64,000 bases of DNA, taken from positions 161,728-225,727 of the forward strand of contig JAIPGM010000001.1 of assembly GCA_021735655.1 (NCBI GenBank). The letters run 5' to 3'. Under the pieces are notes generated by a model, which saw nothing but the letters and a program-made list of their open reading frames with translations, made no database searches and was not told the DNA's origin. This DNA is from Candidatus Omnitrophota bacterium (GTDB taxonomy: Bacteria > Omnitrophota > Gorgyraeia > Duberdicusellales > 4484-171). Positions 1-25,200 of this stretch are shown in pieces (the first letter of the stretch is position 1; each line of letters opens with the position of its first letter). A program made the position numbers and the translations under genes.

Positions 1-1
1 C

Positions 2-1240
2 CGTCTTGATCCAGTACGGGATAAATTACTCTATGACTATCTTTTAAAGCGTTTAATGAGAGAGGGTATGATTGGAGCAGCAGTTGATTTTGAACAAATG
101 ATGCAGGCTAATTCCCTTTCGGTTAATCTTGCCCAAGTTGCGACTAGAAGATTGTTGGCCGATATAGCTATTTATCACACCGAAGAATTTGCTTTAGGAT
201 TACATCTCCAAACTAAAGGCGTGCCAACCTTTATTATGCCTCCGGCAATTAACCCTTTTAGTTATAAAAATATTCCCCTAGCTGATAATTTTATTCGGGC
301 AACTATGGTTAAATATGGTTTAGATCCCAATAAATTTACGGTTGTTGAAATATCACGTTTCGATCCTTTTAAGGGGCCGCTGGAGGCCATTCAGGCTTTT
401 GTGCGTTTATTTTTGGATAATCCGGGATTGCAGAATGATTTACAATTTGTTTATGCCGGAAATATGGCTGACGATAACCCTAAGGGAAAACGCGATTTTG
501 AAAAGATCGATGCCTATTCTCGCTATCTTAGAAAGAAATTTCCTAAACTTAGGAAAGCCTTGTTTTTGCTCGGTCTTGGGAATAAACCCGGGACAGTAGC
601 CTTAAATTGGGCCCAGAGACGCAGCTTGCGTGTTGGTGGTCAGTTTGCTCGGCCATTTTCTCGGAAAGAGATAGGTCGACTCAACGGTGTTGAGATAAAT
701 GCTCTTGAGGTTAATGCTTTACAGCAACAACTTGAGATGGAAAAAAGAGACGGTAGGTTAGTTATTTCTTTACCGCGTAAAATAGCAATACAGCCTTCAT
801 CAAAAGAAGGTTTTGGCTTAGTGGCGGCTGAGGCTACCGGAAAAGGTACTCTGGTTATCGCTTCTTTGATCGGTGGCCTTAAAGCGCAATTAAAGGATTT
901 GCTTGCGCAAGCTTCTTGGTTGGGCATTAACTATACGCCGGAGGAAATTAGTCAATCTTTAGAGGTGTATGACTCAATGGATTCTGATCAGCATAGAGGT
1001 GTTGTTTTCGATGTGGCTTATTTGGAAAGAATTAATTTATATCAACGGCTTAATCAACGAGAATTCGTTTTGGGTTTAGCTACCTCTCTGCGGGTGGCTT
1101 ACGAACTGGCTCATAAAAATCCAGATGTCTATCGAGAGCTCGGTTTAGCTGCACGTTGCCAGACTTTAGATAAGTTTATTACTCTAGCTAATGTTGAGAA
1201 CCGCTTAGCCGCCGCTTCCTTGATTGTTGATAATCAGCAG
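2..1240 (+). other. Polyprotein unit S0: C-terminal half of a GT4 glycosyltransferase, trehalose synthase (TreT)-like
   Basis: EISRFDPFKGPLEAIQAF, NMADDNPKGKRDFEKI and SSKEGFGLVAAEATGKGTLVIASLIGGLKAQL match the remembered TreT/GT4 C-terminal Rossmann motifs (SRFDPWKG; EGFGLxxxEAxxKGxPVI). The N-terminal GT domain is not in the window. Confidence 0.6.
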
Positions 1241-4200
1241 CCCTTGGATAATGGTAAGCCAGAAGTTCCGATGCCTTCTTCTTATTGGATCGATCATAGC
1301 CTTCTTCATGAAATTGATAATGTTTGGGCTAACTTGGATTGGATTAATCCCGGGCCAAGTTTAAGCATAGCTCGCCAGATTGAGAAAAATTTTAAGCCAG
1401 CACAAGAGCCAGGTTTTTTAAGAGTTAGCATAGATGCCTTTGGTCCGCTTAACGGATTTAAAAATCAAGTATTAGCTGAACATGAGCAGTATTTTGATTC
1501 CGAGGTTTATAAAGATTATCGAGCTGGCATAATTCATGCTATTGATAATCTTTGGCAACACGGCGGAAAGTACGGTGCCTTATTTTTGATGGCTCAGCTT
1601 AGAGGACGAACCGTACGCTTTACTTATTGTTTGCTAGATCGCGGTGATGGTTTTATTAATGACGATTACAACCATGTTCGTTTAGAAGAAGCCGTTCAGG
1701 CACATAGAACATTTAAACGAGCCGGCAAGAATGGTATGGGCCTTTATTATATGGCGATAAAGCCGGATTATTTTTCAATCACCGCGGTTAATTGCTACCG
1801 GGCTGTTGCCACAACTCAAGCTCACTATTGGGAAACTGGCTACACTAAAGAATGGCCGTTTTGCCCGCAACAAACTCCGGTTAACAAGGGGGTGCGGGTG
1901 ATTTCGGTAAAGGATGTAGCTTTAGGCCTTTTGCCATTTTCGAATATGCAGCCGTTAGATAATGGCCGTCGAACTGATGAAGAACGCCTGGATTTTATCG
2001 GATTTTTAGTTGAGTCATATTTAGAGGCTTTATTTACTTTCCGGAGGTTAAGAGCAAATAACAGCGAAGTAGCCGAGATGTATCTGCCAGCAATTTCCGA
2101 AACTGCCGTTAGAAAGAAACGAGCCAAATGGGTAGTTACAGCTGTTGAGGTTGCCCGTGAGGCATTTCAGGTTATGGCTCGAGCTGATTTTCGACATTCA
2201 TCCGGCTTAACCATTCGTTCAATCTTTGATTCAATTTTGGCTTCTGGCGGTCGCAACCAAGCAGCTAATGATCTAGGAGTCGATCGCGCTAGCCTTACTC
2301 GCTGGATGCATAGCTTACCTAATGATTTATTAGGTGGGTTAGATCCAGAATTAGCAGTCTTCAAACAAAGAATCCTTGATTTATTTGATGAAAACAATAC
2401 TCGACCCCTAGACAACGGTAAAGAAAATATAGATTTATTAGCGGTTACAGCAGTTAAAAGAGAGGACACCTCACCGTGGCTGGCGGGCCCTCTCTCTGCT
2501 GTAGCCCCTATATATATAGGTAAACAGCAGGGGCCGCTAGATAACGGCCGAGCGCCTTTGGATAATGGCCAGCCAGCTAACTTTTGGAAAGTTTTGCATT
2601 CTGGTATATACGTACTTCCGATATATTACACTCGACTTTTCGATACAGCTAAAGACGCAGGAATTGGAAAATATACTTATGTAGTGCCGTTTGTTCGTGA
2701 TCATGTATTGTCTTTAGGCCATCAAGCGATACTTTTCTTACCGTTTTCTTTGCAGTTACCTTGGTCGCAATCTCCTTATGATGCGGCTGATTGGCGTTAT
2801 TTTAATACTGATTATATTGATTGGGGGCTTATCCCTGAGGCTCAACCTTTTCTAGGTAAGTTCGATTATTACGGTCATTCACAGCGTAGCGTTGATTTTC
2901 GATCAATCCGGCCACGTGAATTATTAATCGGAAAGGCCGCCTTTCTTAATCTCAGAGACAATCGAGAAAAACAATACCGCCAGCGCTGGGAAGATTTTCA
3001 AAGGTTTGTTAACAATCAGCGAAGTAGAGGGCCGGAGTGGGATTTAACCCATCTTGGTCATTACCGGGCCTTCAATGATGTCTTGGGTAATGATTTTGGT
3101 TTATGGGTTCATGAAGGGATGTATTGCCCTAGGCAGGATACCCATCCAGATGTTATCAAGTACAACGTTGCTGAGCAAAATAAAAATATGCAATATTCAG
3201 ATTTAATTCAGTTCTATCAATACCAGCAATGGATTGCTTTCGGCCAGGCTCGCGATATGCTTGAAGGTTTGCGCAATATTGGTGTCTTTTATCTTTTAGA
3301 TAATCCTTTCTTTCATGCTAAGGGTGGTATTAATTTTTGGACCCAAAACATCATTTCAAGAGATAGGCATTATGAATTTTTTGATCGTTCACCCGGTGTA
3401 CCCGGAATCGGTAGTGACCCTGAACAATTCTGGACATCTTTGGTTCCTTGGAATTGGCCTAGATTAAGAGAGTTGGACTATGAACCTTTCTTAAACCCTT
3501 ATCATTATTATTTAGGTGATTTGGGCGCTCAGGGAGTTCGGGCTGATGCTATTCATTTTCTTTTTCCTTGGATTCATTGGGAACGCGGTCCTTATGCTGC
3601 TAATTTTCAGAGTTGGGAGTCCCCGGGTCATGATTTACTTTGGAGATTAGACAACGTTTTTAATTCTTATGGAGCTTTCAGGCTTGGCGAGTTACTTGGC
3701 CCGGGTTTTGAAAGTATTCAGAGAATGGGCTTTGATAATTATCACTGGCATTTCTATCGGATGTGGAAATGGGGTGGCGGACCTGATTTAAATCCGGGTT
3801 GGAACGCAAAAGCTTTAGAGTTACATGATGGGCCGCGGGTTTGTGTTGACCATGAACACGGGTTCTATCCTTATGCCGGACACGCTTATTTACGGCATCG
3901 TTTGGAGGGCCCGGGCGGTCTAAAAGAATTAAATAGTCGTTTCCTTTTAGGCAGTTCGGATATAGCTATGGTTTATGCCGGAGATGAAGTAGCCGACAAC
4001 TGGTGGATAAATAACCCTAATCTGCCTGAGTGGATGATGGATCGTAATTGGGCCACTCGAATGCCAATGCAGGGCGATCAGGATTTTGATCTTTCAGTAG
4101 CCTTGTCCATGCTTGAGCATCGCCGTTGGATTGGCCAGCGTCTAATTGAGCGGACGCCTTTGGATAATGGTAAGCAAGAGTTTAATCATCTTAGCTTGGT

Positions 4201-7200
4201 TGAATCTAACGGTGAACAAAAGTTATACTCAGCCAGTAGTTTAGTAATATCTCAAAGGGGAGTCTATTTAAGCCCGACATCAACCGGGCCGAAAGAGGTA
4301 ATTTCTCAGATTCAACTTAGCCCAAGCGGAATTAAAGTTTCCGGGGAGTTAACTAGCCAGGAGCCAAAATCCCGGCCAATAGATTATCGTCACTCTTATG
4401 AAATTAACTTTTATTTTGAAAAATTAGCTAAAGCCTATGGCCGCGGTTTGTTTGTCGGTATCAATGACGTACAGCTTTGGATTCGTCTTAGCCAGGCTTT
4501 GGGTGATTTTTTATGGGGCGTTTTGCGTCTTGAAACAGGGATTTTTGATATTCCCGATAGAAAATTACGACGCCTGGTGATTCAGGAAGCGCTTTATCAT
4601 GAGGTGATGACTAGTGCCTTGGGGCTTTCAGTGGCTAATCGCGGCTTGCGTGAGTTTTTTGCAACCATTTTAAGTGTCAGCCATTTTTGCTATCTTAGCG
4701 AGATAGCTAAAGATCAGGATAAGCTTAATTATCGTTTAGGGATTCTGCAAGCTCTTGATCGGGGTTTAATCCAGATGAGTGATTCACTGGCTGGGCTATA
4801 CCGTCAAATTGCCGAGTCTGGCAGTTTACCTGATCCAGCAACCTTGGTAAAAGCAGTTATAACCCATATTAATGAAGAAGAACGATACCATAGTGACCGG
4901 CGTTCATTTAGGGATTATGTTCGAACTAAGTCCGAGAATTTTAGCGGACGCTTTACAGTCGGAAATCTTACCCAGGCGGTATTAAATGATTCAGCTTTAC
5001 AGTTAGAGTTACAGGCAGAGTGGACAAATTTCTTGGGATTTTTAGCTAATTCACAAACCGTAGCCCGTGCCTGGCAGCCGAAAATTAAATTTATAAGAGG
5101 TCCGCGGGGCATAAAGGTTATTAATCCCCAAGGCGTACCGGATCAAGGCGGCTATCAATTCCAGCTGCAAAGTTTCCGGGCAATTTTTGACTGTTTGGGT
5201 TTGCCTAATCCGCTTAGTGAGCCAGCTGCCCTAAATAGATATTTAGGTTTTCTGCCTGAGCCTCCTGAGTATGACTCCCAAGCCGTAAATTTACCGGAGT
5301 TAAACATCAGTCAAATTTTACCCGGAGTAGCTGTTGTTTATCCGGATAGTTTGGAAGCTAATCAATTAGCGGTAAGGCGAGCTTTGTATGAATTGATGAA
5401 TTTTCGGGTTTGGAAGTTAGCCGTTGAAATACGTGGCGCCTTAGGTACAGAAGATGCTTTGTTTTTTGATCAGCATTGTCAGGTACATTCCTTTGTTGAT
5501 GTAGCCCAAGGGTGGATGTTAGATTTAAATCCCCAAAGCCCGATAGTCTATGATGATGTTTTACCCGGCGGCCAAGCTTACGAAGCGCCGGAGCAGCCGG
5601 ATTTAGCCGAACATGAGCGATTGCATCAAAAGGCTCAGGCAGTTTTTTCAAAAGTTTGGGCAATCACTATGAACAGGTTCTTGCGGGATCAGCGGATGTT
5701 TGGCGGTGAAGCCGTGGGTTTAGTTGGCTTTACTACAACCGTACCAATATTATATCGTTACATACAGCAATGTAAGCATTCTGAGCCGGAATACTCACTA
5801 CAGCGACCTTTGAATAATGGCCTAGGCATACTTCAATATTTACAATCTTTACGTCGTAGCCAGGAAACCGAGGCTGCTAGAAGGGTTAGTCTAGACCAAG
5901 GCTTTGGGCAATTAAAAAGTTTATTAGTTGAAAAATTACAGTCGATTGATTCAACCACTTTAAGCATTGCAAATCTTGATCAGGCTTTGAATGAAGATAG
6001 CCAGGCGATATTTTTAACCTTAGAGCAATTAAGAGAGGCACGCTTTCAGGCTGAGAGCTTTCGTAATGGGCAGGTAAGTATGTGTGATCTTGCTAGCCTA
6101 GCTTTGGCCGCTGCCAGCGAAGAAGTTTTTGGCCAGAGACACTTAGTTAAAATAGTTGTTGGCTATTATCGGGTTGATGAGCAGCTATATAAAAAACATT
6201 ATTGGGTTGTGATTGATGAAACATTGTTGATTGATATAACTTATGGTCAGTTTGATCCGGACCATCTCAATCGTATTTTAGTTGCTACAGTAGATGATTA
6301 CTTGAGATTAAAATTAGAATATGGTACAGAGTTAGAGCCGCTTGATAATGGAAAACAAACTCAAGTTCAGCCTACTTGTTTAGAGGCTAGGTGGTGGAAT
6401 AATTATTATCCCGGGGTTATCGAAGGAACTGGAATAAGGCCGACTGCCCGCTCACTTAGCTTTGAGCAGATCGAAGAAGTGGTTTGTCTATTACTTCTCG
6501 ATCAAGCCGGCCAGGAATTGGTAGCTAAAATAATAAATAGAGAACTGCCCGATGTATATCCTTCGGTTCGAAGAACCGCTCTTAAAGCTATGGTCAGGTT
6601 CGATCATTACGAACTTTTTGGCCCGAAGATAATTACTTGTTTGCAGGATGTAGTCAGAGATGGAGCTGAGATGTATCAGCCTTTTGCTCTTTATGCTTTG
6701 GCTCAGACCCCGGCTTTTAATGGCCCGGTTGCCAATAGATTTGCCGAGGAAGCACTTAAGGGGACCCTTAAACCAAGCCCAAGAAAGCCTACCGCAGCCG
6801 AAAAAACTGCCTTACAGGAAGGGTTAGAGCCAAATACTCAAGCGATTAGATTTAAATCCCGGCTTGCTTCAGTTGAATATTTAAAAGGAGTTTTAGCTCA
6901 ACGTCAAGGTTGGGCTCGGGTTTGCCTCGGAACAGTACCACATTTTAGTCGGGTTAGCAATCGCGCTTTAATCAATAAATTTGCTGCTCAGGTATTAGCA
7001 GCTGATAAAAAGCTTTCTTCTAGTTCAGCTCAGCGACGCCAGAAAGATAAGTCAGAATTTTGGGGTCTTGAGCAAGCTGAGTTTATTCATCCAGCTACTG
7101 GCCATGAAGCTTTGGTTGAGCTGGCCAATGATCCGGAGTTATCATCTAGTGATGAAAGTCCTTTGGTTGATCAAATACTACATCAGATGGAGGAATTAGG

Positions 7201-10200
7201 TTATGTGCCGATATTGCGACCCAGTAAATTTCAGCTTACTGAGCCAGCTCAAGGTCAGGAAGCTGAAATTGATCGCGAGGCGCTTTGGACCAAGGATGCT
7301 GTTTTGATGATTTCTACTAAATTCGGAATAGTTCCGGTTTCTTCAGCATTAGCCAATCTTAAGGGCGGTGAGTTCGTCAGTGGCTATGGTAAGCGCGGCA
7401 GCTTTATGATTATTCCGGCAGCCGCTCTAAATTCAAAACAGCAGCTATCTGATATAATTCCCGAGGTTCCGATTCATGTATTTCCTTCGGGATTTTTGGT
7501 GATCAATGATCAGGGCGTAATTCGTTTAAGAGGAACCTCGCATATTGACACTTCTTTAGGAGCAATTCCGATTATGGCCCGGCCAGAATCAGGCCAGTTG
7601 ATGTTAATCGATCCTTTGTTGCATCAGGTTGCCCGTACACACCCTCGCTATCGCGATCACTATCAATCAGTAGTTCAAGAAGATGGAGTGCGTTTTATTG
7701 ATGTGCCCGAGCCTGAACGTCATTTAAATCCTGCTAATTTTGGTATTCTTCCCGGTGGAGAAATATTTATGCCTTATGCGCCGCGGACTAAACAAGTTTT
7801 AATTGAGGCTGGGGTTAATGAGCAGTATATAATAATGTTACCAAGTGAATTTAATAAGTATTTACCAACCCTTCATGTTTTGGCGGGGAGTATTGGCTGT
7901 TTAGTGGCCCAAGCTTTTCATCCGGTTGAGAAGCGAGAGCCGCTCGACAATGGCCATGAAAAAGAAAAACGGCAAACTAGATCCCGAGCAATAGATATAT
8001 CAACCAAAGGTGCTGAAGATTTATTGTTTACTGAGCTTCAAACAGGGAGTTTAGTTAGTTTAGTGGTTGATGGCCTTGAGTATTGGCTTAGCCTTGACCA
8101 GGGCGATGAAGTTTGGTTTGATTTATATCGGCCTAAAGATGATATCATTGGCTATATTTATTTTCGAAATGACGCAATGCCAGCCAGAAAAATAGCCAAT
8201 TTTGGCGGCCCGAGCATTGTTCCGGCTTACCGGGGCAGGCATTTGTCGCGAGTTCTTTATTTTGTTTATTTTCGTTATCTTTGGCGCAATAATTATATCC
8301 CTGAAGAAGACTGTTTGACTATCGATGATCGATTGGCCCTAAAGCTTTATCATGAAGCTAAAAAGTTTTATTACGATCAAGACCATACCTTTACTCCGTT
8401 TCAGATTATTCCCCGAGCCGAAAAGACTAAAGCTGCAAAACCTTTAGATAATGGCCACGATATGGTTCAAAAACAATTATTTGAGTTAATTAAGCGTAAG
8501 TCAGATTCGATTAAAACTTTCTTAGAGCCGTTTGAAGCTTGCCTTGCTTACAATGGAGTGTTAGCTTTGCTGATTCGAGGAAGGCCTGACTTGAGCGTTA
8601 AATTTTTGCTTAAGAAGATTGGCTCGGCTGAGCATTGGTTTTTACTGGCTGAAACTGTTTTAGGAAATCATCAGTTTGTGGTTGATATTTCGCCGCAAGG
8701 AAAGATGTTTACCGATATTGAGGTGCTGGTTGTAGATTGTGCTGAAGCCGGAAAAATAAATTATCTATATGAAGATTATACTGTAGTTAGCGATCAAGAA
8801 ACCGAAAACTTATTGCGAGCCTTAGCAAGACAAAAAGGGATGAATGAGTTCTTGCATTTAGTTCATCAATTACCAGAAGAAAAATGGATAGGTAGGTTAC
8901 CGGATAGTGACCAGTCGATGCCACTTGATAATGGTAAATTAATCAATGAAGGTTCAGAAAGTTCTTTTTCCGATATAACTAATTCGATGCGGGTGACTTT
9001 TGTTATGCCGATGTACAATGAACAGCAACGCTTACTTCCCAAGACTTCTGATAATCCCTATGGTGAAGATGCTTTAAGGGTTAAAGTAAGTCAATTTAGA
9101 GAACTCGAGCAAGAAAATCCTAATTTCCAGTGGCGGCTAATTGCCGTAGATGACGGAACTCCCGGGTTTGCTTCAGCCAAATGCCTTGAGCAGATTTTGG
9201 CTGAGATTGATGCCCAGAATCGGGAATTTAATATCTATTCTAAAGTTTTCGTAGTGGTGATAACTGAACAAGAAAAGAAACTCCTAGGCAGCCGAAAGGG
9301 TGGAGCGGTTTTGCGTGGCTTTCAAGAGGCCCTAAGCCACGGTTGGGCTGATTATATCGGGATTACTGATACTGATATTTCCAGTAATGTTAACCAAACT
9401 AAAGATTTGATTTTGGCTCTTCGCAAAGGTGCTGGAGTAGCCATTGGTTCACGCCGCCAAAGCGGGGCCGAAGCTCGCGGCATACCGCTTTTAGGGAGAG
9501 TTAGCACAGTTATTTATAATTGGTGCATTCGTTTGATTTTGTGGCCGCTTTTTTCAATTCGTGATACCCAGCGCGGTTTTAAACTTTTTCAAAAAGAAGT
9601 AATTGTCAGAATATTACCCTATGCTCGCGATCACCATCTTTCTTTTGATACTGAACTGTTACTTTTGTCGCGTTTAGCCGGATACCAAATAGCTGAGGTG
9701 CCGATTGTCTGGATTGATTCAGCTGAGGCAACTACTTTGGTTATGTCTAAAGATGCTCCAGCGATGCTCTGGCGAGTGATTAAACAAGCCCGCCATATTT
9801 TTAATAATCCTTTTCGCGGCCAAAAGCCGCTCGATAACGGCCGAAAAATAAATCTATCAGTTAGAATGCTCAGAAAAGCTAGATTAATTACTGTTCATGT
9901 TGATGCTGGAGATTGTCCAGCCGCCTTAGCTAGCGCGATTGATAAATTAGTTTCGGGTTTAGGGCAAATCCAAGTAAGCCGTAGTAATATTGTCTTAAAC
10001 ACCGCCCATCAGAATAGCCCTATGGATATTGTTTCGTCGGTAGGCTCTCTCTCAACTGAACAGATAACAACTTTATTTCCTGAAGCTGTTTTTCTGATTG
10101 CTGGCGGCAATGTGTTTAAATGCTTAAGAAATCTAGTTGAGTCATTGGCTGTCGGCTCAGTGAACAAGCGAACTGTTAGGATTTTTGTTCTTTACGATTA

Positions 10201-13200
10201 TACCTATGGCCAAGGCTCTAATTATAGCCCTGAGCAATTAGCCGGTGAATATTATGATTATTTTAGCGATATGCTTTCAGTCTATAGTGATAGGTTTAAT
10301 CTAGCTGTATTTTATCTTGCTCAGAATCAATTCGAGCAGGAAATTTACGGTAAAAATTTATCCGGGCCCAATTTATCTTTAGCAATTATTGAAAAAGAAG
10401 CTTTAGCTAGTCAAGTACCTTTAGATAATGGGCGTAGTCTTGGGGAGTTAACTGCCGAAGGCTACAACTTAAAGTTTCTAGCCCGCAGTTCTGATTTAAG
10501 AATGACTGCCCATTGCCGAAGAGATGTAAGTTTTAATAGTTATCTTTATGATTATCGCCTGGATCCAGAGCATACTTATCGTCAAGCCCAATTAGTTCCT
10601 TTAGTTGCTCGATCGGTTAAGGAAAATGCTTTTAGAAAGTCTTCTGATTGGCAATACTTGCCGCAGCATTTGAAAGATTTATACGATTCCGGTAAAGTTT
10701 TGATGATTGCTTCCCGAGCCCAAGCTAAAGCTAAGCCTAGCCGGTATTCAGCCTTAGTAATTTCTGGCAGGACTGAGGCTTTTAGCGGCCGGATGGGTAT
10801 TTTACTCTATGACAATCGGCCGATCATTGTTTCAATTTTAGATAAGCCTTTTTTCATTGAAGCTAAAGGAATCGGGGTTGCTCAAGGAGGTTTTAGCTCA
10901 GTGCATCGGCGCTCGGGCCATAGATATGAAGTTACCGGGGCTCAGCGTTGGCAAGCTTCCTTAAAAGAATTTACCAGTTTAGAGCTTGAGCGAAAAATCA
11001 GCCGATTTTTTGGAACAGCTGATACCCCACGCGCCTTAGCGGCGATAGTCTATAAATATCCTCAAATGGATCAGTTAATTAGTGATAGCCTAACTAGCCA
11101 GGCTGAGCGAAGAGAAGCTAAAGAGCAGTTAGGCGATAGTTTAGGGATAATGTTGCGGCTTTCGCCTTCGAGCCGCCGCTTTGCTTATAATTTAGAACAG
11201 CGTCACATTAGAATGCTTGGTGAAGCTTCAGCCCGCCTGCTTTGTTCTTATCTTCCCCGAGTGCATACTTCGCCGCATTTTGAAAATCTTCTGGAGTGGG
11301 CCGAAGGCAGTGAATTCTCTTGGTCAGACTATGGAGATATTGAAGTGTTATTTGCTCAAAGTAGTTATCACTGGTCAAGGTCACTGATTAATGCCCGTCG
11401 GATATTAATGTCTTATTTGGAAACTAGTATTAGCTGGAATGTAAATTTATTAAAAAAACTGGGAATAATCGAAACCGAAGCAGAATTTATCAGCGAATAC
11501 CTAGCTGGCTTTGTTGCTTATGCTGAAACTTTAGACTGGATAACTCCTGAGGCAATCGAACGTTTAGCCCGAGTCCGCTCGCCTAAGGAGTTTGTTGACG
11601 TAATGATTTTTGAAGTATTCGCTTTAAATGCTTACAACGTGTTTAAAAAACAAACTTATGAAACTATAGTTGAAGTTAATCAGAATAATTTAGTAGAAGA
11701 ACTTTTAAGCTCGGCTTTAACTATTGCCCAGCGGCAAGAGAAAGCTCAACTTGTTGCTGAGTTAAGTGGACATATTGAAGCAGCTAAACAAGGAGAGGCT
11801 TTTTTAGGTTGTCGAATAAAAAAATCTCAAGCTAATCAAGGGGTGCTTACGCCGGTAGCTCAGCCGGTTAAAAATAGTTCTTGGGCTAATCCCTTTTTTG
11901 ATCAATTCGCTTATGATTTATGGCATGCGCTACTTTTTGATGATCATAACCTTTATGATTATGTTCAGGCTAAATGGGATTATACTGTTGGTGAAGAAGG
12001 GGCTTTTAACGTGGCCGGATTTTATCTGCTTGATGCTCATTATCTTGGGTTGTTGCGTTCGCGCACCAGCATGCATAATATACCGGAAAAATTATATATG
12101 TGTTCAGCTGGATATGAAATGACTGCTAATATCAACAAATTATTGACTGCGATTAATCGAGTTAGTTTGTGCCCTCAGGAAAATACCTTGGTGCGTTCAA
12201 CCGTACGTAACACCTTACAACATGCGATTTCCCAGCGCCTAAGTAAGTGGCGCCTGGCTCGGGCTTTAATATTAGTCGTTGAATCTAACGGCGAAGTTCT
12301 TGCCGGAGACGACAGCACTTATGTTTATATTATGGATTCTGGTCCGGGCATGCCGATTGATGCGGTAATGCAAGGCGATTGGCGAAGACATAGTACGATG
12401 TTTGGTACGGATTTAAAAGGTTTTCGTGAATATAGGGACGTTGAATGGATTCTTGATTCTTGGTCAAGCAAAGCCGGCGGACCGCAACGTTGGGATGGTC
12501 TAAGAGGGGGGCTGGTTGAGGGAGCTTTAGTACCGGACAACATGCCTTTATTTGGTACTTTATTCGGTATGCGGCTTAAGCATGGCTTAGAATCGAGTAG
12601 CAAACCTTTAGACAACGGTAGAGATTCTCGGTCAAAAGGACAAAATCTTGGTAGTTTAGGAACGGCTAATAAGGCCCCTCCGGTAAAAACTTACAATGTC
12701 GAGAGTCCTTTTAATCGGTTTTCGCTGCGCCTTTTAGATTTAATTCTAACCTTATCTTTCTTGCCTCTGATTATTCTAGCTAGCCTACCCATAGCTATAT
12801 TTGTTAAATATCAGATTTTTAAACACAAGACTGGACAGTCAGTTATTTTTAAAGAGCAGAGATTCGGCTATAAGGGTAAACCGTTTATCATGTATAAATT
12901 TCGTACTTATATCGGCGATAAAGATAATCCTAAGGCAGTTTTACTGAGCTTGCGTTGTTTGGGGCTAGATGAGTTACCGCAGTGGTGGAATATCTTAAAG
13001 GGCGATCTTTCAATTTGGGGAGTGCGCCCTAAGTTACAAGATGATCCCAGCTCTGACAGTGATTTCCAAGCACACCTGGATCAGATCAATGATTTACGCA
13101 AGCCGGGAATAATTAGTTTAGCTACGGCTGATGTGCACGCTGAGATGGAGCATGTTTCTTTTTCAGCCGAGCATCGCGATCGTCAGATCGCCTTTGATCT

Positions 13201-16200
13201 TTATGAAGCAGAGTATTGGTCATTCTTTTTAGCTTTTAAAATTGTTGTTTTGAATATCTTTGCTCAATTTAAAGAAGCAGCCAGGATTGTATTCCGAAAT
13301 AAAATTTTAGTTATTGTTGCCGTGCATATTCCGCAAGCCGAGCAGCCAAAAGCCGGCCCAATTTTAAATATTTTAGAATACTTAAGCCAAAGATTCCCTT
13401 CGAAATATTATAGTGTCTTTGTTGGTTTTCCGGATTCAGGAAATCCCAATTTAAATTTAGATTTAGCTATTCCTCAAGGCTTAACCATTGGCTTAGGTGA
13501 AGGCGATGAATACAACATAGTTAATTCTCAAGGCCTTAAACTTAAATTTAGCTGGCAGTTTGAGGGGCCAGACGATTTAAGCCAAAGAACTTTAAAAATT
13601 GGACGCCACAAGTTATTAATGCCATTGTGCGCTGAAAGTTCTCTTCCGGTATTTTCCGGAGCTAAGAAAAAAATTCCCCATAAGGCTATCTTCATTCCCT
13701 TTATTGCTTTTCGTCCATGTATTGTTACCTGTATGAATGATTTAATATTTCTCAATCTTCCGATAATTGGATTAGATACCGCTAATGGCATATTTTTGTT
13801 TGTTCCCGGCTCAACCCAGATTGATATAGTCGGTACAAACAAGCTTCTGGCCGTAGCAATTAATCATTCCGGCAGGGTGATGGGCAGTTCATTTAAAGAT
13901 TTGGACCAAGTCGTTCCTTTAGATAATGGACGTCAAACCATTTCCCACTTCCGAAGTGGGGAAGGTCAGAGCCGGACCGGCCCGACATCCCGTAATTTCC
14001 CCCTGGATAACGGCGGCCGGAATAATGAAGCTATCGAAAACAATCGGTTTTCATTCGCTAATCGTCTAGGAAAAGTTTTAGTTGCTACTGTTATCGGTGG
14101 AATTTCTTTAGGGTTATTGTATTTATTCGGCGGCCTTGATTGGTATACAAATATAAAAAATAGTATTCCTTTAGGGGCAGTGATTTTCTGGCCGGGGGCT
14201 TTCCTGGATATGGTTACCGGTGTTTTGATCTGGTTAATTTCCGATATCGTCGGTCAATATCTTAATCAGGGTAGAAGCATTCGCTATCGGCAAAGTTTTA
14301 AAGTTGGTGCTTGGGGAGTATTTCAAGGGTTGGCTACTCACATTTTGTATAATTTAGTTGAACTGCTTCCGGTTGTGCCTTTACCTTTAGCGCAAGCAAT
14401 GTTTCGAACTATTTTTACTCTTTTTGGCGGACTGACTATTAACATTTTCTATACCGTGGTTGTAGCCCGGGCTCGTAAAGCATCTAAGGCTGAAGGTTAT
14501 AGCGGCCTAAAGGAGCGCCACAAGGCTTATGATGTTATTTTTAGTAAGTTTATCGTCGCCCCAATCAAAACTTATTTTATAGTTAATCTATTACCTCCGG
14601 CAACGCGGGTTATTAGCGAGCAGGCTTGGGAATACTTAATGAAAGTTTTTGATGCTTATTTGATGAACCGTAAAGATTCACTTTTTTCTAGTTATATTCT
14701 AAATTTATTATCTAGAAAAAAACCTTTAGATAACGGCCGCTCCGGGCAGTCGGATGATCAAATAACTTTGGTTTCTGATAATCTGGTTGACTCATTTAGA
14801 AATGTTAGACAAAGGCTGGTAGTAACTGTTAGGCGCGCACAGATGTCTAGATTGGATTTTAAGCCGGGGATAGTGTCACTTCAGAATATGAGCCCAAAGG
14901 TAGATTATTTCTGCCTTTCTTCAATATCTGAACGCCAAGAAGATATCCAAGCCTATAGGCAAGTTCCTTTAGTACAGGATGGTGCTAGTTTTGGAGAAAG
15001 TTACAGTGAAAAATATCTTATTGCTCAGGAACCGGATACCTTAGTTTTAGTTGAGGGTGATGAAGGGTTGATTGCCAGTTTTGATTATTCGCTTTGTGGT
15101 TGTCTAGTCATTCGGGCTAGAAATCTTTTTGGCATGGCCCACTTAAGTCCATTTATAGATTTTTCGGATGAAGAGATGGAAATTGAAAATGATCGGATTT
15201 ATTATAAATATTTATCAGTTTTAGATTATTTCAAATTACAGGGATATAAAGATGTTCAAATTTTTCTCAGTTTGAATGAGCTGCTTCAGGGATTTAAAAC
15301 TTTAAAAGCTAGGCTTTGGTCGGCTGGTGATAGCGATGCGACTAATCGTCAGAGAGTGGTAGATCTTCTTGGGATTGAGGCTAGGCAACGCGGCATAGCT
15401 GTTGTTGATCGCCGCCTTCGACAAAAGTCTGAGGTTCTAGATGTCCTGGGTTTTCCGAGAAAAATGATTAGCCGTCAATGGCTTAATCGCGGCACAAAAC
15501 CCGAAAGTTTTGAAATAATATTTATTGAGACTAGAGATGAGTTGCCAGTAGCCATAAACTCAGAGACTCAACAACCCGAGATTGAATACTTTCAATTCGC
15601 TTGGCCTGTTGTGATACCTCTCGATAATGGCCGCCGGAAACTACCAAATGATGACTGGATTTGGGTTAATGGAGAGAGTTTGCAATTTGTTGGCCGGGAC
15701 GGTTTATTGATAACAGGAATGGAGGGCCGGGGTAAAAGTTTTTTGGCCAGAAAAATATACGATAGCGATGATAGATGGAAAGTCGTATCCTGCGGAGCTA
15801 CTCATGTATGTATAAGGAATGAATTAGCAGAAAGAGCGCTTTTAGGCAGACGTTTATCCGAAAATAATCTTTTATATTCCCGGCTGTCAGGAACAATCCC
15901 GGTAGAACTATCGTTAGATGTAGTTGTTAGGTTGAACTGGGTTATGGCCTTAGACGATCTATACCGAGAAATTTTAGGGGGATTGTTGGCCGATGCCGGG
16001 CAAAGAGAGTCTTTGGGCCTCAAAATTATAGATATGAGCGATCTAGACGTAACTCGGCAATGGCCGAAAGTGTTGAAGTTCATCAATGCGTCTATTGTGA
16101 AACCAGAGACTTACGATAAAGGAAATAGTTTATTTCAAGTCCCTCTTGATAATGGTAGACGAGCTCAAGTTGAACAGGAACGGGAATTTTTGATCCAGAC

Positions 16201-19200
16201 AATCATAAATGTTTTTAGCCAAGGTGAAGGATTATGCCTGGAGCCGGCGCAGATAGAGGCAGCTATTGCTGTAGATACATCATTTGATGAATACAGGATA
16301 GCTAGAAACTTGCCGATAGTTATTGGCCTAAAGGGTAATATTTATGAAAATTGTCCTTTGGCTAGCAAGCCTCTTCTTCTTGTGTTTACCGGCAGAGGAA
16401 GCATAACTAAACCAGAGCTTATCTTCAATGCCTACACCCAGCAAGGTTTAGTCAGAGAAGCAAGCCGTTTAAGTCGTTCGATGGAAACTAAAAATGCAAT
16501 TTGGGAGATACCTTATCATGGCAAGAAGACGGCTTTCATATTGGAAGATAAAAATAACTGGATTGCTTTGGCGGCAGTTTATGGTCCTGAAGATATTTAC
16601 CAACAAGGACTATTGATCTGTAAGGGTGGAGATAGGATAACCAGGTTAGGTACAGAAATTTCTCAAGCCGCTGGTGAGGCAGATGAGGAAGCTATATTTT
16701 CTGATTATTCCCGGGCCTTAGTGGTTGCTCGTCTTTTAGGATTTTCTATCCTTGATGGTCCAGATATGATGCGCCGGGTTAACCGGCGGATGAGCGCTAT
16801 GATCGCGGCAGCAAAAGAGACTGTGGCCGATATCAATGAGTTTGCTAAGGCATACCCTGGTTATGAGGCTGTTGATACACATCACATACTTAAACCTACT
16901 ACCAGTAATCCGGTGGAAGAGGGAGGTTTCCCGCACACTGAATGGATGGTGACTAGTCGAGGGGTTGTTCAGGGGACGGTTACTGCTTTGCGTTGGCTTA
17001 GACAGGTTCTTGACGTTGGAGAGAATAGGTACCCTGAGGAAGTGGTAAGATTTGTTAAAAATTTGAATATATTTGGAAGTCCGATGAGCTATATTGTCCA
17101 AGGCTTTGGTGATGTTGGCAGCGGCATCACTAAGCTTTTTTTGACTATTTTTAAGATTTTTGGGTTTCAGGCCAGGGGTTTTAATAACCGTTACTTTGCA
17201 ATTTATCGCCGCGAAGGATTACCTAAACCATTTTTAGTTGAGGCGCGGGAGATCGTTGAAGTTTCTCCTGATGCTTTAGATCTAGGGAGATTACTGGCAA
17301 TGAAGAGTTTTGATGACCAATTACAGGGGGCGGTGGTTTGGATAGCTAATCCAATTAACCCGAAAACTAAAGAGCCAGTATTTGGTCCTGCTGATGTGGA
17401 CAGAGTAAATCAAGCTCTTGCTGAAAGAGGTGTTACTGCTATTTGGGGTGATCAGACAGTAGTAAATGAACTAATTTATCAAAAGGCAACCGTGCTTTTT
17501 CTGGCTGCAACCGCTAATGTTATTAGTGAACTTTCTCAGGTTGAAAGATTGCAGGTTAAGATTATTTCTGAGGGAGCTAATAATGCAGTTAAACCTGAGT
17601 TAAGAGAGCCTTTAAGAAAAGCTAATGTATTTTATATTCCTGGTGAGCTTCTTAACGGCGGGGGCATATATGCTTCTAAGGAAGATATTCGGCATAACCA
17701 TACCGATGGATCAGAATTAATAAGGCAACATCGGCAATACTATTATATACATGTAACTGATGAGATCGACACATTGGCTCTTCACCGAATGATTTCTTTC
17801 CTTGAGATTTGGGCTGAGTCAGCAGGAAATTTTTCTTTTGATTTAACCGTCCATGTAGAAAAAGTTGCCGGCCGGATTTTTGAAGCAGCTGATAATTTGG
17901 TAAGAACCAATAATACACGTTTGAGAAAATTTACCCAAATTGATCAAAAGAGAACCTTTGATCATCAAGCCGGCCGGCCGACTTTGCCTTGGCGTCATAG
18001 TCTTTATGAAATTGCCATTGAAATGGCACCAATGGGAATACTTTATCATTTGCGGGATGTCGGTAGACACTTATCTTTACTTAATAGATTTAAGGTTGCA
18101 ATAAAGGAAGATGGTCAGATAGATAATTATCATATATGTCGTCTGCGTTTTGCTTTATTTGAGTTGACCAAGCTAGGCTATTATTTAAAAAGTAACCAGC
18201 GCAGAAGGTTAATCGGCCTTCTTCCTGGAATAATTACCGATGAAAAGTGTGATGGCCTATTAAGGAAAGATGCCATGTTTTGTTTGGCAATGGCAATTAG
18301 GTGGCAGGAAGAAGAATCCTGTAAATCTGAGGTAGATCGGGCAAGAAAATTATATTTAGGCATATTACAAAATCCCCTTGAAAGTGCTCAGCTGCATACC
18401 TGGGCTCAGCATTGTCTCTATAGGATTTTCGGAGAAAATTACTTCCGGCGGATAAGCGCTGATTTTGATCGCTTAAACGGAGTTAACTTACCCAAGCCGC
18501 TTGATAACGGTCGGGATAGTTCGGTCGGGATTACCTCAGAACCGTTAAGAATTTTAGCCGAGCTAATTTCGAATAGTTATCGGACTAAGGCTTTAGTAGA
18601 ATTTTTGCAGCCTTTCTTAGATTGTGAATCTGTTAATTATTTACAAGAAGAGATAGCAAAGCATTGCCAGCTACCGGCCTGGGGTGTTGTTTCTTCTAGC
18701 CATTATCTTGATGAAGGGTATTTCTATTATGGTTTAAAATCCGGTATTGATCGCTGTCTCGAAAGAGGAGTTATGGTTGAGAATGACGGTAACAGATTAT
18801 ACGTTACTAAAGATTCAGAGGATACCGTAAAATATAGCGGCCTTGACGAAACTCAAGAAAACCAGTGGGGAATTTTTATTTTTCCAAGCGAGTATTTCAA
18901 TCAGGCTATCAATTGCGGTTATGCCGAGGCCGGCTTAAGGCTTTCACATAACCGCTTAGGCATAACTACTTATCCATACTTCAAAAGTTCTTTATCGCTT
19001 GCGCCGGCACGCTTTCTGATAATTGATAGATCTAAGGCAGATGAACATAGGCACCTGGAAGGCCAGCCGAAGCTAAAAGATAAACTTCAAGCCTTGACCG
19101 AAGCAGGATTGAAGGTTCTATGGTTGCCGGATTCTTCCGGCCCATTCTTTGACCCTGATTTCCAATATGCTTTCGGGGAGTTGTTGTTTAGTAATGATAT

Positions 19201-22200
19201 TCCGGAAACCAATCGCTTTCTTTTTTATCCGTCCGCAGATACTCAAGATCTTACAAAAATCATCTGGTGGGTTTTACAGTCGTTAAGAATGAGTAGTATA
19301 AAAAATCGGCTATTACATAATATGGAGTTAGCTCGGCAATTTAAAAAAATCGGCCCCTTTGATAATGGGCGAGCTGATTTTACAACAGCAGACGAACAGA
19401 TCGGTAATCTTTTTGCTGAGGCAGTTATTACAGGAGATAATGTTTTAATTGAGACTCATTGGGATGCTGTAGCGGCTAAGAGAGGCGGCAGTTTGAATAT
19501 TTTAGAACATGCTGGCTTAAGGATTACAAGAAGTTTAGCTTTAGGAATTGTACCGCGGGCTGGTGAATGGCCGGATAGGGTTGAAACCGATCAAATCATT
19601 CTGAGTTCATCTCGCTATGGTTGGATCGATTCTGAAAGAGATATTGAGCATTTGTTAAGCGGCTTTGATCAAGCCAGATTGCTTAATTCGTTTAATCTTG
19701 GCCATTATTATCAGGGTTGTCACTATCGAAGTTTCCTAAGCTGGCTAGCGGTTTTAAAGAGTAGTCATTTCCCGGCAGTTATTTTTCATTTCATAGGTGA
19801 GCTAATTAATTCTTGGGGTATTAAGCCAGCTGCTAAGAGTGATTTTCCAGTTTTGGCCAGTCGAAGGGATATCTTTTCTTTCGTTAGCGTGCCTTATGTT
19901 TCAGATATAGAAAAATTAGATTTGCCAGTTGCAGTGTTTTTTGATGGTAAGCTTAGTTCGCTTAGGCGTGGCGATAGCCGGAAACAGCCAACTTTAATAT
20001 TAGCTTATTGGCAAGCTTTGAATGGTTTTATTGGTTTTAAAGAACAGATAGCTAGGGAAACAGCAGAATTTCAGAATACCCCTTTAGATAATGGCCGCAA
20101 AGAGCATGACATCTCTGATAGTACGGTAATCCAATGGCCGCTTAATGTAATTGTTAAAGATATGCGCGGTTTATCCAAAGGCGAGATATTAGCTGTTGTT
20201 AAAACCGGTAAAATATTTTGGGGAAGGGAAATAGTAGGAGCTATTTTTTCTGACCGCAATATTGTTTTTGGTAAAGTGGTCGATGATAAGTTTATAGTAT
20301 TTGATGATTGGTTAATTGAAAGAATTCCTGGAGGATTGTTAGAGGGGTTGCGGAGAAGCATTTTATTTTTGCCTTATTTAGGAAGTATTTTAAGAAACAA
20401 GACATCGTCAATAAATAAACCCCTGGATAATGGCAAGAAATATAATTATCGGCAAGTCCTAGAGATGGTTGACTGTTTTGATAGTGCAAGGTTAGAGGCT
20501 CACTTATTTAGAGCTCTTGGCAGAGTTGAGACTGAAGCCGTATCTATAGCTGGTGATATTATTAGGGCGGCTAGAAAATTTGAACGGATAACTAAAGCAG
20601 TAAAATCTCTTTATAGGAAAACTTACGGCAAGCTACCTAATTTTACTCTTGCTTTCGATCCTTCCGGTCAAGGTATGTATGGGGCGTATCAGGAGGATGA
20701 TACAGCCGGATTTTTTGATCATATTGGCGTAGCTCCAGAAGATGTGCTGCTTGAGGTAGGCAGCGGCGATGGAAGCATTTCGGATTTCATGGCCCATATG
20801 TTTGGGATTAAGGCAACTGGGATTGAGGTTTGGGAGCCATATTATCATTACGCAGTTTTCTTAAGAGATGAAGCAGTAAGAAGAAGATTCATTCCAGAAG
20901 GTAAAGTAGATTTTTTAAATAATAATTTAGTAGATGTTGATTTTTCAAAGTATTCTTTAGTGTACTACGCTGCTCTTGGCACAAGAAGAAAAAGTGAGCT
21001 GGCTGCTAGATTGCTTGGGGTAAGAGAAAAATCCAGGATATTAATTCGGGGTTCACCTGATGAGTTAGTGGAAGGGATTATCGCATCACATCCTGATTTT
21101 AGCTTAAGGAAGCTTGAGATAGAAGTTAATGAAAACCTTACTGGAATTAAGGCAAGGGTTTATACTCGAGAGACAATTACCAGTTACCAGCCGGTTCTCG
21201 ACGTTCCTCTAGATAATGGCCGAAAAAATAACCCTCAGATGGTCAGAGCGCGCTTAGCCGCATTTGAAAAATCAATCGAGGGCATCGTGCCTAGGGCAGA
21301 TCCGCTTTATGACCATTTAATTCGTTTTTATCAATATCCTTTGAATAATTTGGGTGAACCTGACGAAGAGACCTATGTAAGGAATAATACCAAGGAGCAG
21401 GAGCGGGAGCTTCTTAGATTCTGGGCCGGCCATTTCGGCCTTCCTAAAAATTACGGCGGTCATGTGACTATCGGAATCGGTCAGGCTGAATATTATGCCA
21501 TGTACGTGGCTAGCAATCGATTTCCCAAGGCTATATTTTATATTTCTAATCAGGTCGATAGCCTTCTTTATGATACTTTACAGGTGTTGGGCATTGATCA
21601 AGGAAGAATAAAGTTAATTAGGTCTTTAGAGAATGGCGAGATCGACTATGGTGATTTAAAGAGAAAGATTAGGGAGAATTCATCATGGCCGGCGGTGGTC
21701 TGCTTGACTGCTGGCAGATTCCTGGGGGCGGTTGATGATTTAGGAAAAGTGGAAGGAATTTTAGGGAGCCTGGGCCTAAAGCATAAACATATTCATTGCA
21801 GCATGTCACCGTTAAGTATAGGCCAGTCGTTTTTGGAAGATGCGGCAAAGATAGATTTTCAACATGGCTTAGATAGCATGAGTCTACCGTTGTATCATTT
21901 TGTAAGGTGTCCGATGCCAGGAGTCATCGTTCTTACCAGAAGGAAATACCTTCAGAACATTGCTTGTAGTCAAAAAGCAGCTGAGTATGTTAACTCTAAC
22001 GACACCACTAATTCTGGATCACGTAGTGGTCATGCTCCGCTTTATCTTTGGTTTGCTACAAAAGTTATTGGGACTAAAGGATTTAAGGCTCAGGCTGAGC
22101 GGGCCAGGGAAGTTTGTGTTTCTATTAAAGCTCTATTTGACCGTTACGGTTATCCTTGCCGGTTCACCGCGCAAAAAAATACAATAATCTTTGAGCCACC

Positions 22201-25200
22201 ATTTTATGAGTTGCGTCAAAAATGGGGCTTATTATCACACGGGCAATGGTCCTGTTTTGAGATTGTACCTTATTTGACCCCGGTTGAGATAGCCGAATTT
22301 GTAAGTGATCTTTTAGGTGATCATTCTCAAGCGGTAGCCGCCCCGGTAGAAACCGTATTTCCGGAACGGATTGTCTATGAACCGTCTCCGGAAGTCTTAG
22401 ATGTTTTGGATCAATTAGAAGCAAGGATCCAAATTTTGATGGAAAGATTTTTAGGATTTCCGGCAAATATCGCCGGCAATGAGACATCTTTTGCTGCCTT
22501 GAGCAGCTTGTTTAAATACACCTTGAGAAAAAAGGATGTGGAAGGTTTTCGACACGAAGCCTTGAAATTTTTTACTGATCTTTACGGTTTAAGGTACGAA
22601 GATTTTTACTGCGGCATAACTGCTGGAGGAACCTGGGGAAATCGGGTTGGCCTATTAGTTGGCCGGGAAAATTTTCCCGGCGGGATACTTTATTACAGTC
22701 AGGATTCGCACTACTCGATTGATAAAGTGGCCAGGAGCCTTAACATGGAAGTAAGAAAGGTCGCCTCTTTGTCTAACGGCCAAATTGATTATGATGAATT
22801 AGCCGAAGCCATAGAGGAAAATCGTGGCCGCCCGGTAATTGTAAATCTTAACATCGGCACAACTATGAAAGGCGCTATCGATAATCCCCAAAGAGTTATT
22901 GAAATATTAAGAGAACAGGATGTTACTGATTACTATATCCATTGTGATGCCGCGCTTTTTGGTATGATTTTACCGTTTCTCGAGGCTGCGCCAAAAATTG
23001 ATCTGGCTAACGGCGTCCATAGTATTGCCATATCCGGACATAAATTTCTCGGCCTACCGATGCCTTCGGGCATATTCATGGTTCGGAAAAATTGTGCTAG
23101 GGATAGATTGATAACTATTTCGGATCGATTATTGACTGCCCAAACTGGCCATGTCATTTTGTATTTTTGGCAGGCTGTTGCTAGCCGAGGGTATGAGGGT
23201 TGCAGAGAAGAAGCTATGGCTTGTGTGGATAATGCCCAATATCTTTATTACAGATTACAGGAAAGGGGATTGCCTTCGGAGGTAAACCCTTTTTCCAATA
23301 TAACAATGTTTTCCCGGCCATCGGGTAGCCTAATTGACACTTGGCAGTTAGCGCCTTGCGGGGACCGCGTCCACGTAGTGGCCATGCAGCATGTTACCAG
23401 AGATAAGATTGATGCTTTTGTCCAAGAGTTAACTAGGGATATGCAGCAAGGGCAGATAGAACTAGCTAGTTCTATGCAGCCTCTTGATAATGGTAGACGG
23501 CGCAAAGCATCGCTAGTGCCAGAGGTAGGCCTTGATGAATTAGTTGAAAAACATTTAGGAAACTTGAAGTTGATATCTTCTGAGTATGGAAAAAGCGTAG
23601 GCATGTTATCTACTATTTTAAGACGACCAGACAATGAGAGCCTTCAACAAAGAGCAGAGGAGTTGAGGAAGATTGGTCCTGGCCGTCTGGCCTTAGCAGC
23701 TGACTTAGGCGAATTCGGAGTAGATAGTTTGAAAATTGGTCAGAAGTATGGCGTTGGCCGAAGAACAGCGGCTAGTTGGCTTGTTAATAATGGATTTGGC
23801 GATAGGGTTAATAGCGCTAGATATAGTCGAAGTAGAACATTAAGACGTCAAAAAATAGCTCAGGAATATGAGCCGATTGCTCGCTTATTAGATGGTGAAG
23901 GCAATCTTTTACAGACATTTTATACCCATATTTCTTGGAAAGAGGTATCTGCTTATCCTTTCGCTGTTTTAGATGAATTAGAAATCCAAGCTACCGAAGT
24001 TTTAAGTTATGGTGGTAAGCAATGGGGTCAGTTTAAGGGGCATGCTGGCCATAGAGCTCGGATAACATTGGAGTGGGGCTATCCAATAGAAGTTGCTATG
24101 TCTAGCAAAAGAGGAGTTGATCAAGGTAGCTATAGAGCCATGCAGCTTAGGACCTATCAGTCAACTCTTTTTGATAGAGAGGGGGAACTCTTAGATACTG
24201 CTTTTTTCGTTTTTGGTTACGATGAAGATTTATGTCGGGGAACAACAAAAGTTGTTAACTATCAATTAACCAAGGCTGGAAGAATTAGTATTTTTGGTGA
24301 TGAACAAATACAGCTAATAAAACATAAACAAGCCTGGGCTAATTTAGTTGCAGTGGATGGAAAGGTGGTCAGGGCTACCATTCTTGATAGAGAGGGCGGG
24401 AATGAGGTTATTACTTATAATTTTTCTCGAGTGTATGATGAAAACAACCGAGTAATTTACACTTTTACTGGAGGTTTAGAGTTTAAGCAAAGCAGTGTGC
24501 CGCCTGCGTTGTTGAAATCTTTAGCTAGAGGAAGAATTGAAGGTATTTACCTAAAAGGTGGTCGTGGCAACTTAACTATTGGCGGCAGAACTTGGGTTGT
24601 TTTAAGTGACTATAAAAATTATCCATGTAGGGCTTATATTGAAGAAGGGCTTGTGGTCAGAGTAGAGGTTTTAGGTGAAGAAGGAGAGGCTGTTTTTACC
24701 AAGCATTCTCACCGCCTTTATGATAGAGAAGATAACTTTGTCGAAGTATTTTATGATTCTATTTCACCAGAGCGACTTAACCAGGTTGGTTTGTGTCGTA
24801 GCAGTCCACTTATTGTGACTCCTTCAGGAGAGTTATGCTTATCTGGAAATCGTTATACTTTTGAAAATGAAGGCGGCTCTAAGGCTATTGTTTGGATTGA
24901 ACCCGGAGTTAAGTTCACCAGAAATAGAAAGCCGGATGGTAAAGCAGTTAGAATTGATTTTTATGATCAATATATGCATTATAAGCATACCCGTTATGCA
25001 GTCAGAATCTATGAAGATGAAGGAGTTTTAATTGATACTTTTTTTGGTCCAGGATATGCTGAGAAGCTAAAGATTTTTGGTGATGTAATTGGCTTTGCTC
25101 AACTCGATACGTTAGGTTCTCTTAATATTGGCTACACAACCCATACCTTTACTAAATATGGTGACCCTCGACATTTTGTTAGATTTAGTCTACACCAGGC

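Follow-up and report, generated by a model that had tools for sequence, protein, structure and literature searches.

Giant multi-enzyme proteins of uncultivated bacteria are best described in the Omnitrophota, where they are suspected to be cleaved at points that are not known and where peptidase domains of the C39 and S8 types have been proposed to process them (bioRxiv 10.1101/2023.11.21.568195). Here, we analyze a gene of comparable build from a Candidatus Omnitrophota bacterium, which is contained in a stretch of 64,000 nucleotides (referred to as the window; contig JAIPGM010000001.1, positions 161,728 to 225,727 of the forward strand). The open reading frame (ORF) of this gene occupies window positions 2..29311 on the plus strand, with the frame open to base 2, an ATG at 56 and the stop at 29311, and the translation of 56-29311 is a single ORF of 9751 amino acids. 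Its architecture is like that of the giant proteins termed 'multi-enzyme metabolic clusters' in the Omnitrophota, and the published examples resemble it also in surroundings that are rich in glycosyltransferases, glycoside hydrolases, methyltransferases, GNAT and radical SAM proteins (bioRxiv 10.1101/2023.11.21.568195). Twenty-nine copies of a five-residue junction peptide, P[LF][DN]NG (PLDNG in the following), divide the giant ORF into 30 segments. Two of these segments, S6 (5822..6337) and S9 (8456..8920), had been put forward in a first-pass annotation as candidates, one or both, for the peptidase that cuts the protein at the junctions. From our analysis, the two modules emerge as members of two rare, previously unannotated families with a conserved Cys-His-Asp signature. 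They are probably thiol enzymes with a papain/transglutaminase/arylamine N-acetyltransferase (NAT)-like fold, and we tentatively favor a role as cargo enzymes of the multi-enzyme protein over that of a dedicated PLDNG-processing peptidase.

The motif strings and cysteine codons that had drawn attention to the two modules are all present where they had been reported. S6 (amino acids 1923-2094 of the giant ORF, 172 residues) is bounded by junctions on either side and consists of a conserved helical N-terminal half (approximately residues 1-85), followed by the Cys-His-Asp core (residues 86-157) with the strings VSMCDLASLALAAA (6074-6115), VVGYY (6155-6169), HYWVVIDE (6197-6220) and LIDIT (6227-6241). 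The proposed nucleophile, Cys88 (TGT, 6083..6085, plus strand as for all residues listed here), is the sole cysteine of the module and is invariant in all six family members. The putative general base, His126 (CAT, 6197..6199), is conserved in five of the six, and the proposed third member of the triad, Asp138 (GAT, 6233..6235), is again invariant, as is Asp132 (6215..6217), an alternative candidate for the third position. S9 (amino acids 2801-2955, 155 residues, with PLDNG on both sides) has a short helical N-terminus, a Cys-His-Asp core (residues 27-98) with the strings EACLAYNGVLALL (8534-8572), EHWFLLAE (8630-8653) and VVDIS (8678-8692), and a conserved C-terminal part that ends with P-x-x-x-W-I-G. 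Here, Cys29 (TGC, 8540..8542), His60 (CAT, 8633..8635) and Asp77 (GAT, 8684..8686) are invariant in all four family members; neither the second cysteine (C95) nor any of the other four histidines is conserved in the family. The two modules had been described as having the same order and spacing of these residues. The order Cys, His, Asp is indeed identical; the distances are close but do not match exactly, amounting to 38 residues in S6 versus 31 in S9 from Cys to His, 12 versus 17 from His to Asp, and 50 versus 48 from Cys to Asp.

A loose regular expression for the Cys-His-Asp signature matched only the S6 and S9 cysteines in the 9751 amino acids, compared with a mean of 0.09 matches in shuffled sequences; as the expression was composed after both modules had been seen, this is a weak test. 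Conservation among relatives is the stronger one, the triad residues having been named before the relatives were known. Just eight columns are invariant in the six sequences of the S6 family, and they include, besides Asp132, Cys88 and Asp138, two of the three residues specified beforehand (p ~0.006). In the S9 family, all three pre-specified residues are found among 25 invariant columns (p ~0.004). Cys and Asp are thus invariant in both families, and the only conserved Cys and the only conserved His of each module are members of the proposed triad. When both families were aligned with MAFFT, their cores proved to be collinear, with Cys, His and Asp in shared columns and another conserved hydrophobic strand 15 residues past the Asp in both families. 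S6 and S9 are each the sole copy of their own family in the window.

To retrieve the relatives, 1.84 billion cluster representatives were scanned exhaustively by phmmer with concatenated S6 and S9 as the query. The scan yielded five relatives of S6 (P0003, P0004, P0005, P0006 and P0011; E 2.5e-10 to 7e-4) and three of S9 (P0001, P0002 and P0009; E 1e-21 to 7e-4); three further matches are repeat proteins and were regarded as spurious. No homologue was retrieved when S6 or S9 was used in word-indexed searches, and a profile search with the S6 family recovered P0006 alone. The relatives align over residues 19-169 of S6 and residues 1-151 of S9. The alignments fill the whole stretch between two junctions, and the PLDNG junctions therefore fall on the borders of modules that are mobile in evolution. 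The host proteins of the eight relatives are bacterial and mostly giant multi-enzyme proteins, ranging from 270 to more than 6429 amino acids with several cut by contig ends, and three of them have N-terminal signal- or transmembrane-like sequences. The modules adjoining the relatives comprise GNAT and metallophosphatase (P0004, P0005), S-adenosylmethionine (SAM)-dependent methyltransferase (P0001, P0009), PLD (P0011) and TPR (P0003) domains, and these neighborhoods look like a shuffled toolkit of enzymes. Proteins in which a relative adjoins GNAT, metallophosphatase, methyltransferase or PLD modules measure from 2200 to more than 6400 amino acids. The contig that encodes P0004 is a fragment of a bacterial chromosome, on which recA, recX, alaS and his genes are close by. 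PLDNG does not occur in any of the eight host proteins and a degenerate k-mer scan of these proteins returned no recurrent linker. As the hosts of the relatives are devoid of PLDNG, the S6 and S9 families do not travel with the motif. Searches of genome, metagenome and viral collections for a closely related sister polyprotein gave no match.

Two of the host proteins have features of their own. In the P0001 fragment (1-300), the S9-like module is preceded by GGWSGGPVI..GKVVAILFAA. The only PDB matches of this stretch are to the catalytic-Ser region of a membrane-associated trypsin-like protease from M. tuberculosis (E 0.09, not significant), which hints that canonical proteases may be present in such giant proteins. 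In P0002 (6429 amino acids), a unit starting with (A/G)GG(L/M)S(I/V)D(A/G)LER(I/Y)A is repeated at least four times between residues 3430 and 5100; it looks like a repeated domain and not like a short linker.

Among described enzymes, the transglutaminase/papain-like clan (Transglut_core, PF01841) has the order Cys, His, Asp in common with S6 and S9. The likeness extends to the Cys, predicted in the S6 model to be at the N-terminus of a helix, to an aromatic residue after the His in a hydrophobic strand and to the Asp in the next strand, and distances of 31-38 residues from Cys to His and of 12-17 from His to Asp are in the range of small members of the clan. S6 and S9 differ from the clan in being small units of 155-172 residues with family-specific N- and C-terminal extensions. 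C39 enzymes, for comparison, have a Cys-to-His spacing of about 80 residues. A second likeness is to the NATs (PF00797), in which a helical region likewise precedes the Cys. The Cys-His-Asp spacing is 39/15 in NhoA from E. coli compared with 38/12 in S6 and 31/17 in S9, and S9 and NhoA share, by eye, the patterns C-x-x-x-N-G-V and H-x-x-L-L-x-E. NATs are larger, however, with about 280 residues and a third domain that is absent from S6 and S9. Membership in the NAT family was not supported: there was no match to it in Pfam, and the hhalign comparisons with NhoA resulted in P 0.69, in P 0.046 for an off-target segment and in P 0.086 for the Cys helix alone, the best local alignment placing the family cysteine on NhoA Cys69 (P 0.086, not significant). 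Viral papain-like and 3C-like proteases and the cysteine protease domain of MARTX toxins are, as S6 and S9, embedded in a long multi-module chain with uniform motifs. S6 and S9 differ from them in that no homology was found, the host is bacterial, the families occur in proteins without the motif and cleavage is hypothesized.

Searches for a known fold gave little. With a cutoff of E<=10, no member of the Peptidase_CA clan was found in Pfam for S6, S9, all 10 family members or the two consensus sequences. Neither Transglut_core nor any peptidase profile was matched significantly in Pfam, NCBIfam or PDB, and the NCBIfam and PDB sequence and profile searches were empty. The only family matched repeatedly by the S6 family is YunG (PF24585), with four of the six members scoring, all below the gathering score (threshold 27 bits): S6 itself reached 13.7 bits (E 0.069), the best family member E 0.0022 and the consensus sequence 22.8 bits (E 1.1e-4). 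The matching region consists of the His- and Asp-bearing strands without the Cys helix, and S9 did not match YunG in Pfam. YunG comprises uncharacterized small proteins of Bacillota to which the Pfam entry assigns no function, and a literature search for YunG returned nothing relevant. Single-sequence AlphaFold2 models were obtained with a predicted local distance difference test (pLDDT) score of 53 for S6 and 37 for S9, and the structural search with these models produced noise and no usable match. In the low-confidence S6 model, a helix (residues 87-97) starts at Cys88 and is followed by strands at 109-117, 123-131 (with His126), 135-141 (with Asp138) and 149-156, a topology that would be the one expected for a thiol-enzyme fold. 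The earlier reading of the signature thus stands as far as S6 and S9 are conserved autonomous units in which the order, spacing and context of the three residues fit the papain/transglutaminase superfamily; the assignment to one of its families found no support in the searches.

The junctions deserve attention in their own right. P[LF][DN]NG occurs 29 times in the giant ORF and nowhere else in the six frames of the 64 kb, compared with about 0.008 copies expected from the amino acid composition. The sites span window positions 1241-29092, and the residue after the junction Gly is Arg or Lys at 24 of the 29 sites. Because the codons of the motif differ synonymously among the sites, the motif is conserved as a peptide and not as DNA. 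An origin at the DNA level, either as a repeat element or as an overlapping TAATG stop-start, is ruled out by this synonymous variation and by the continuous frame. S6 is flanked on its 3' side by PLDNG (6338..6352) and directly on its 5' side by the degenerate junction PLNNG (5807..5821), the sole one with Asn in place of Asp, in which the next residue is Leu instead of Arg or Lys; S9 lies between PLDNG at 8441..8455 and PLDNG at 8921..8935. The other variant is PFDNG at 19355. A literature search for 'PLDNG' and 'bacterial polyprotein' yielded nothing relevant. Compared with S6 and S9 themselves, the more remarkable question at this locus is how PLDNG is resolved, if it is resolved at all. 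Side by side with the regular junctions, there is a tandem PLDNGRAPLDNG at 2534-2569, and mini-segments of 23-38 amino acids are present at 2420-2533, 13931-13999 and 27551-27622.

S6 and S9 most likely both adopt a small alpha+beta fold as known from thiol enzymes (papain, transglutaminase or NAT type), in which the nucleophilic Cys would be located at the N-terminus of a helix and the two or three beta-strands that follow would carry the His and the Asp. The His-Asp pair would activate the Cys thiolate for attack on an amide or thioester carbonyl, and the resulting acyl-enzyme could be resolved either by water, as in an amidase or peptidase, or by an amine, as in acyl- or transglutaminase-type transfer. 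Alternatively, the modules may not be thiol enzymes at all and Cys, His and Asp may be structural or ligand- or metal-binding residues in an unrelated small fold, for example that of a binding or regulatory domain. The lack of any profile or structural match to a Cys-His-Asp enzyme, the failure of hhalign to relate the families significantly to NhoA and the absence of an assigned function for YunG, the sole weak relative, are all in line with such a fold. We nevertheless consider it rather unlikely, since the three residues were predicted before relatives were known and then turned up among the few invariant positions of two families, and since their order, the Cys-to-Asp distance of 48-50 residues and their context (small residues before the Cys, an aromatic one after the His, the Asp in a hydrophobic strand) fit the superfamily. 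Several observations weigh against S6 and S9 as cargo thiol enzymes. Neither has a significant match to a family of known fold in Pfam, NCBIfam or PDB; S6 and S9 show no significant similarity to each other by BLASTP or hhalign; the divergent S6 relative P0006 has Gln at the position of His126, so that the His is missing in one family member; and with six and four sequences the families are tiny, which makes the conservation statistics coarse. Moreover, the case for cargo leans mainly on the lack of co-occurrence with PLDNG, with which host-specific protease specificities would still be compatible.

Acetyltransferases, transglutaminases, amidases and deamidases make use of a Cys-His-Asp triad as well, and a peptidase can therefore not be deduced from the signature. 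The idea that S6, S9 or both act as cysteine peptidases on the PLDNG junctions of the giant protein, in cis or in trans, can point to the conserved signature and to the position of both modules between junctions, the latter being true of every module of the ORF and therefore not discriminating. It can also point to two families that seem to be confined to very large multi-domain proteins, a setting in which an enzyme for internal processing would be of use, and to the published work on Omnitrophota giant proteins, in which post-translational cleavage is suspected (bioRxiv 10.1101/2023.11.21.568195). Finally, there is no recognizable competitor in the visible part of the ORF. The first-pass annotation had noted the lack of any other protease fold, and at the sensitivity of sequence searches this holds for the part inside the window: the visible 9751 amino acids gave no protease match in Pfam or PDB with about half of the segments unannotated, neither C39 nor S8 is detectable there, and a search of the giant ORF for classical signatures (GxSGG, GTSxAxP, HExxH, Q...CG) returned one isolated HERLH at amino acid 1853, which is likely a chance occurrence. 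It does not extend to the whole protein, as the ORF is cut at the left edge of the window and very likely continues upstream, where a protease could be located; published giant proteins often carry C39 or S8 domains, which tend toward the N-terminus. A cellular protease can, furthermore, be encoded anywhere in the genome. A uniform site calls for one protease and here two unrelated modules are present, neither of which matches a peptidase family; the S9-like module of P0001 follows just downstream of the trypsin-type Ser-protease-like motif (E 0.09); and in eight relatives neither family is accompanied by PLDNG or by another recurrent linker. There is thus no positive evidence for S6 or S9 as the PLDNG-cutting enzyme, and such a function appears unlikely. 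It is more plausible, and in our view fairly probable, that PLDNG is resolved without S6 and S9, be it by a protease encoded elsewhere, by autocatalytic Asn-Gly chemistry or by a translational skip, or that it persists as an uncleaved structural or docking linker. This agrees with a motif that is conserved as a peptide 29 times and usually followed by Arg or Lys, with the truncation of the ORF at the window edge and with relatives of S6 and S9 that lack the motif. Succinimides form most readily at Asn-Gly, Asn is the residue at which asparagine peptide lyases cleave, and 2A peptides end in Gly. On the other hand, efficient self-cleavage is unlikely for a five-residue motif in variable context, and to our knowledge skipping of the 2A type has not been described in bacteria. 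For S6 and S9 themselves, we tentatively favor the reading as cargo, in which they would be carried along in the same way as the surrounding glycosyltransferase, GNAT-like, methyltransferase and decarboxylase modules.

The distinction has consequences for the importance of the two modules. The giant ORF offers 29 explicit candidate junctions for a class of proteins in which cleavage is suspected, and with S6 and S9 it contains two concrete candidate enzymes that are accessible to mutational analysis. They are legitimate first candidates for PLDNG processing, yet to gain support. If they did cut at PLDNG, they would constitute the first defined pair of a protease and its site for the post-translational dissection of giant proteins and would reveal a natural bacterial strategy of metabolic polyproteins. 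That S6 and/or S9 founded new cysteine-peptidase families that process giant bacterial polyproteins, here at 29 PLDNG sites, seems quite improbable to us. Even if they are not processing enzymes, two new families of Cys-His-Asp modules have come to light that recur in giant proteins and are unannotated in current databases. Should they merely be cargo, the finding is a modest one and adds two more orphan thiol-enzyme-like domains.

The comparison with viral polyproteins that had accompanied the peptidase proposal proved to be misplaced. The locus is bacterial and not viral: the flanking genes, among them those for an Opp-type ABC transporter, radical SAM enzymes and glycosyltransferases, are bacterial and no viral relatives were found in IMG/VR. 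The modules identified in the giant ORF are metabolic enzymes, namely a TreT-like GT4, a GH77-like enzyme, a GT2, a PglC-type phosphoglycosyl transferase, a Glu/Leu-dehydrogenase-like enzyme, a SAM-dependent methyltransferase, a serine/histidine-decarboxylase-like pyridoxal phosphate enzyme, a GH100-like enzyme and a GT1, and about half of the segments are without annotation. The first module (window 1-1240) aligns to residues 195-284 of TreT only, and because it covers just this part the giant ORF almost certainly begins upstream of the window. Both strands were checked for other ORFs of at least 60 amino acids overlapping 5822-8920, and none was found. A Logan assembly contig from run SRR12088349 carries the same giant gene and ends within it at about window position 2497; the window thus stems from another record, which is longer.

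Some of the segments without annotation attract the eye. Between S6 and S9, the segment at 6353-7939 (529 amino acids) has no significant Pfam match and carries LHVLAGSIGCLVAQAF at its C-terminal end, by eye similar to the C-terminal catalytic-Cys motif of guanidino-group-modifying enzymes (amidinotransferases/deiminases). The next segment (7955-8440, 162 amino acids) shows a GNAT-like motif by eye, IVPAYRGRHLSRVLYFVYFRYL, without a Pfam match; in P0004 and P0005, GNAT modules adjoin the S6-like modules. Further downstream, the segment at 14738-15616 (no Pfam match at E<=1) could possibly be another Cys-His enzyme of the giant ORF, since its SLCGCLVIRARNLFGMAHLSP is similar by eye to the Cys/His motif found in deamidases of the CheD type. 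In the segment at 19370-20080, YYQGCHYRSFLSWLAVL contains a possible Cys at the N-terminus of a helix; Pfam gave no match at E<=10.

The genes 3' of the giant ORF are tightly packed on the plus strand and encode an Opp-type ABC importer, an amine oxidase, ABC-2 exporters, a methyltransferase, several fused radical SAM/SPASM/B12 enzymes, glycosyltransferases, an alpha/beta hydrolase and a phosphodiesterase. Between window positions 40797 and 54078, the downstream genes are themselves multi-enzyme fusions, with three radical SAM/SPASM units at 43160-47014 and two B12-binding radical SAM units at 50920-54078. These fusions do not contain PLDNG, so that multi-enzyme fusions that have the junction motif and others that lack it are found together at one locus. 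Across the window (1-64000), the G+C content is about 0.43 over the first 8 kb of the giant ORF and decreases to about 0.34-0.37 where the radical SAM genes are located. The GC skew remains positive over the whole window, and almost all genes are on the plus strand.

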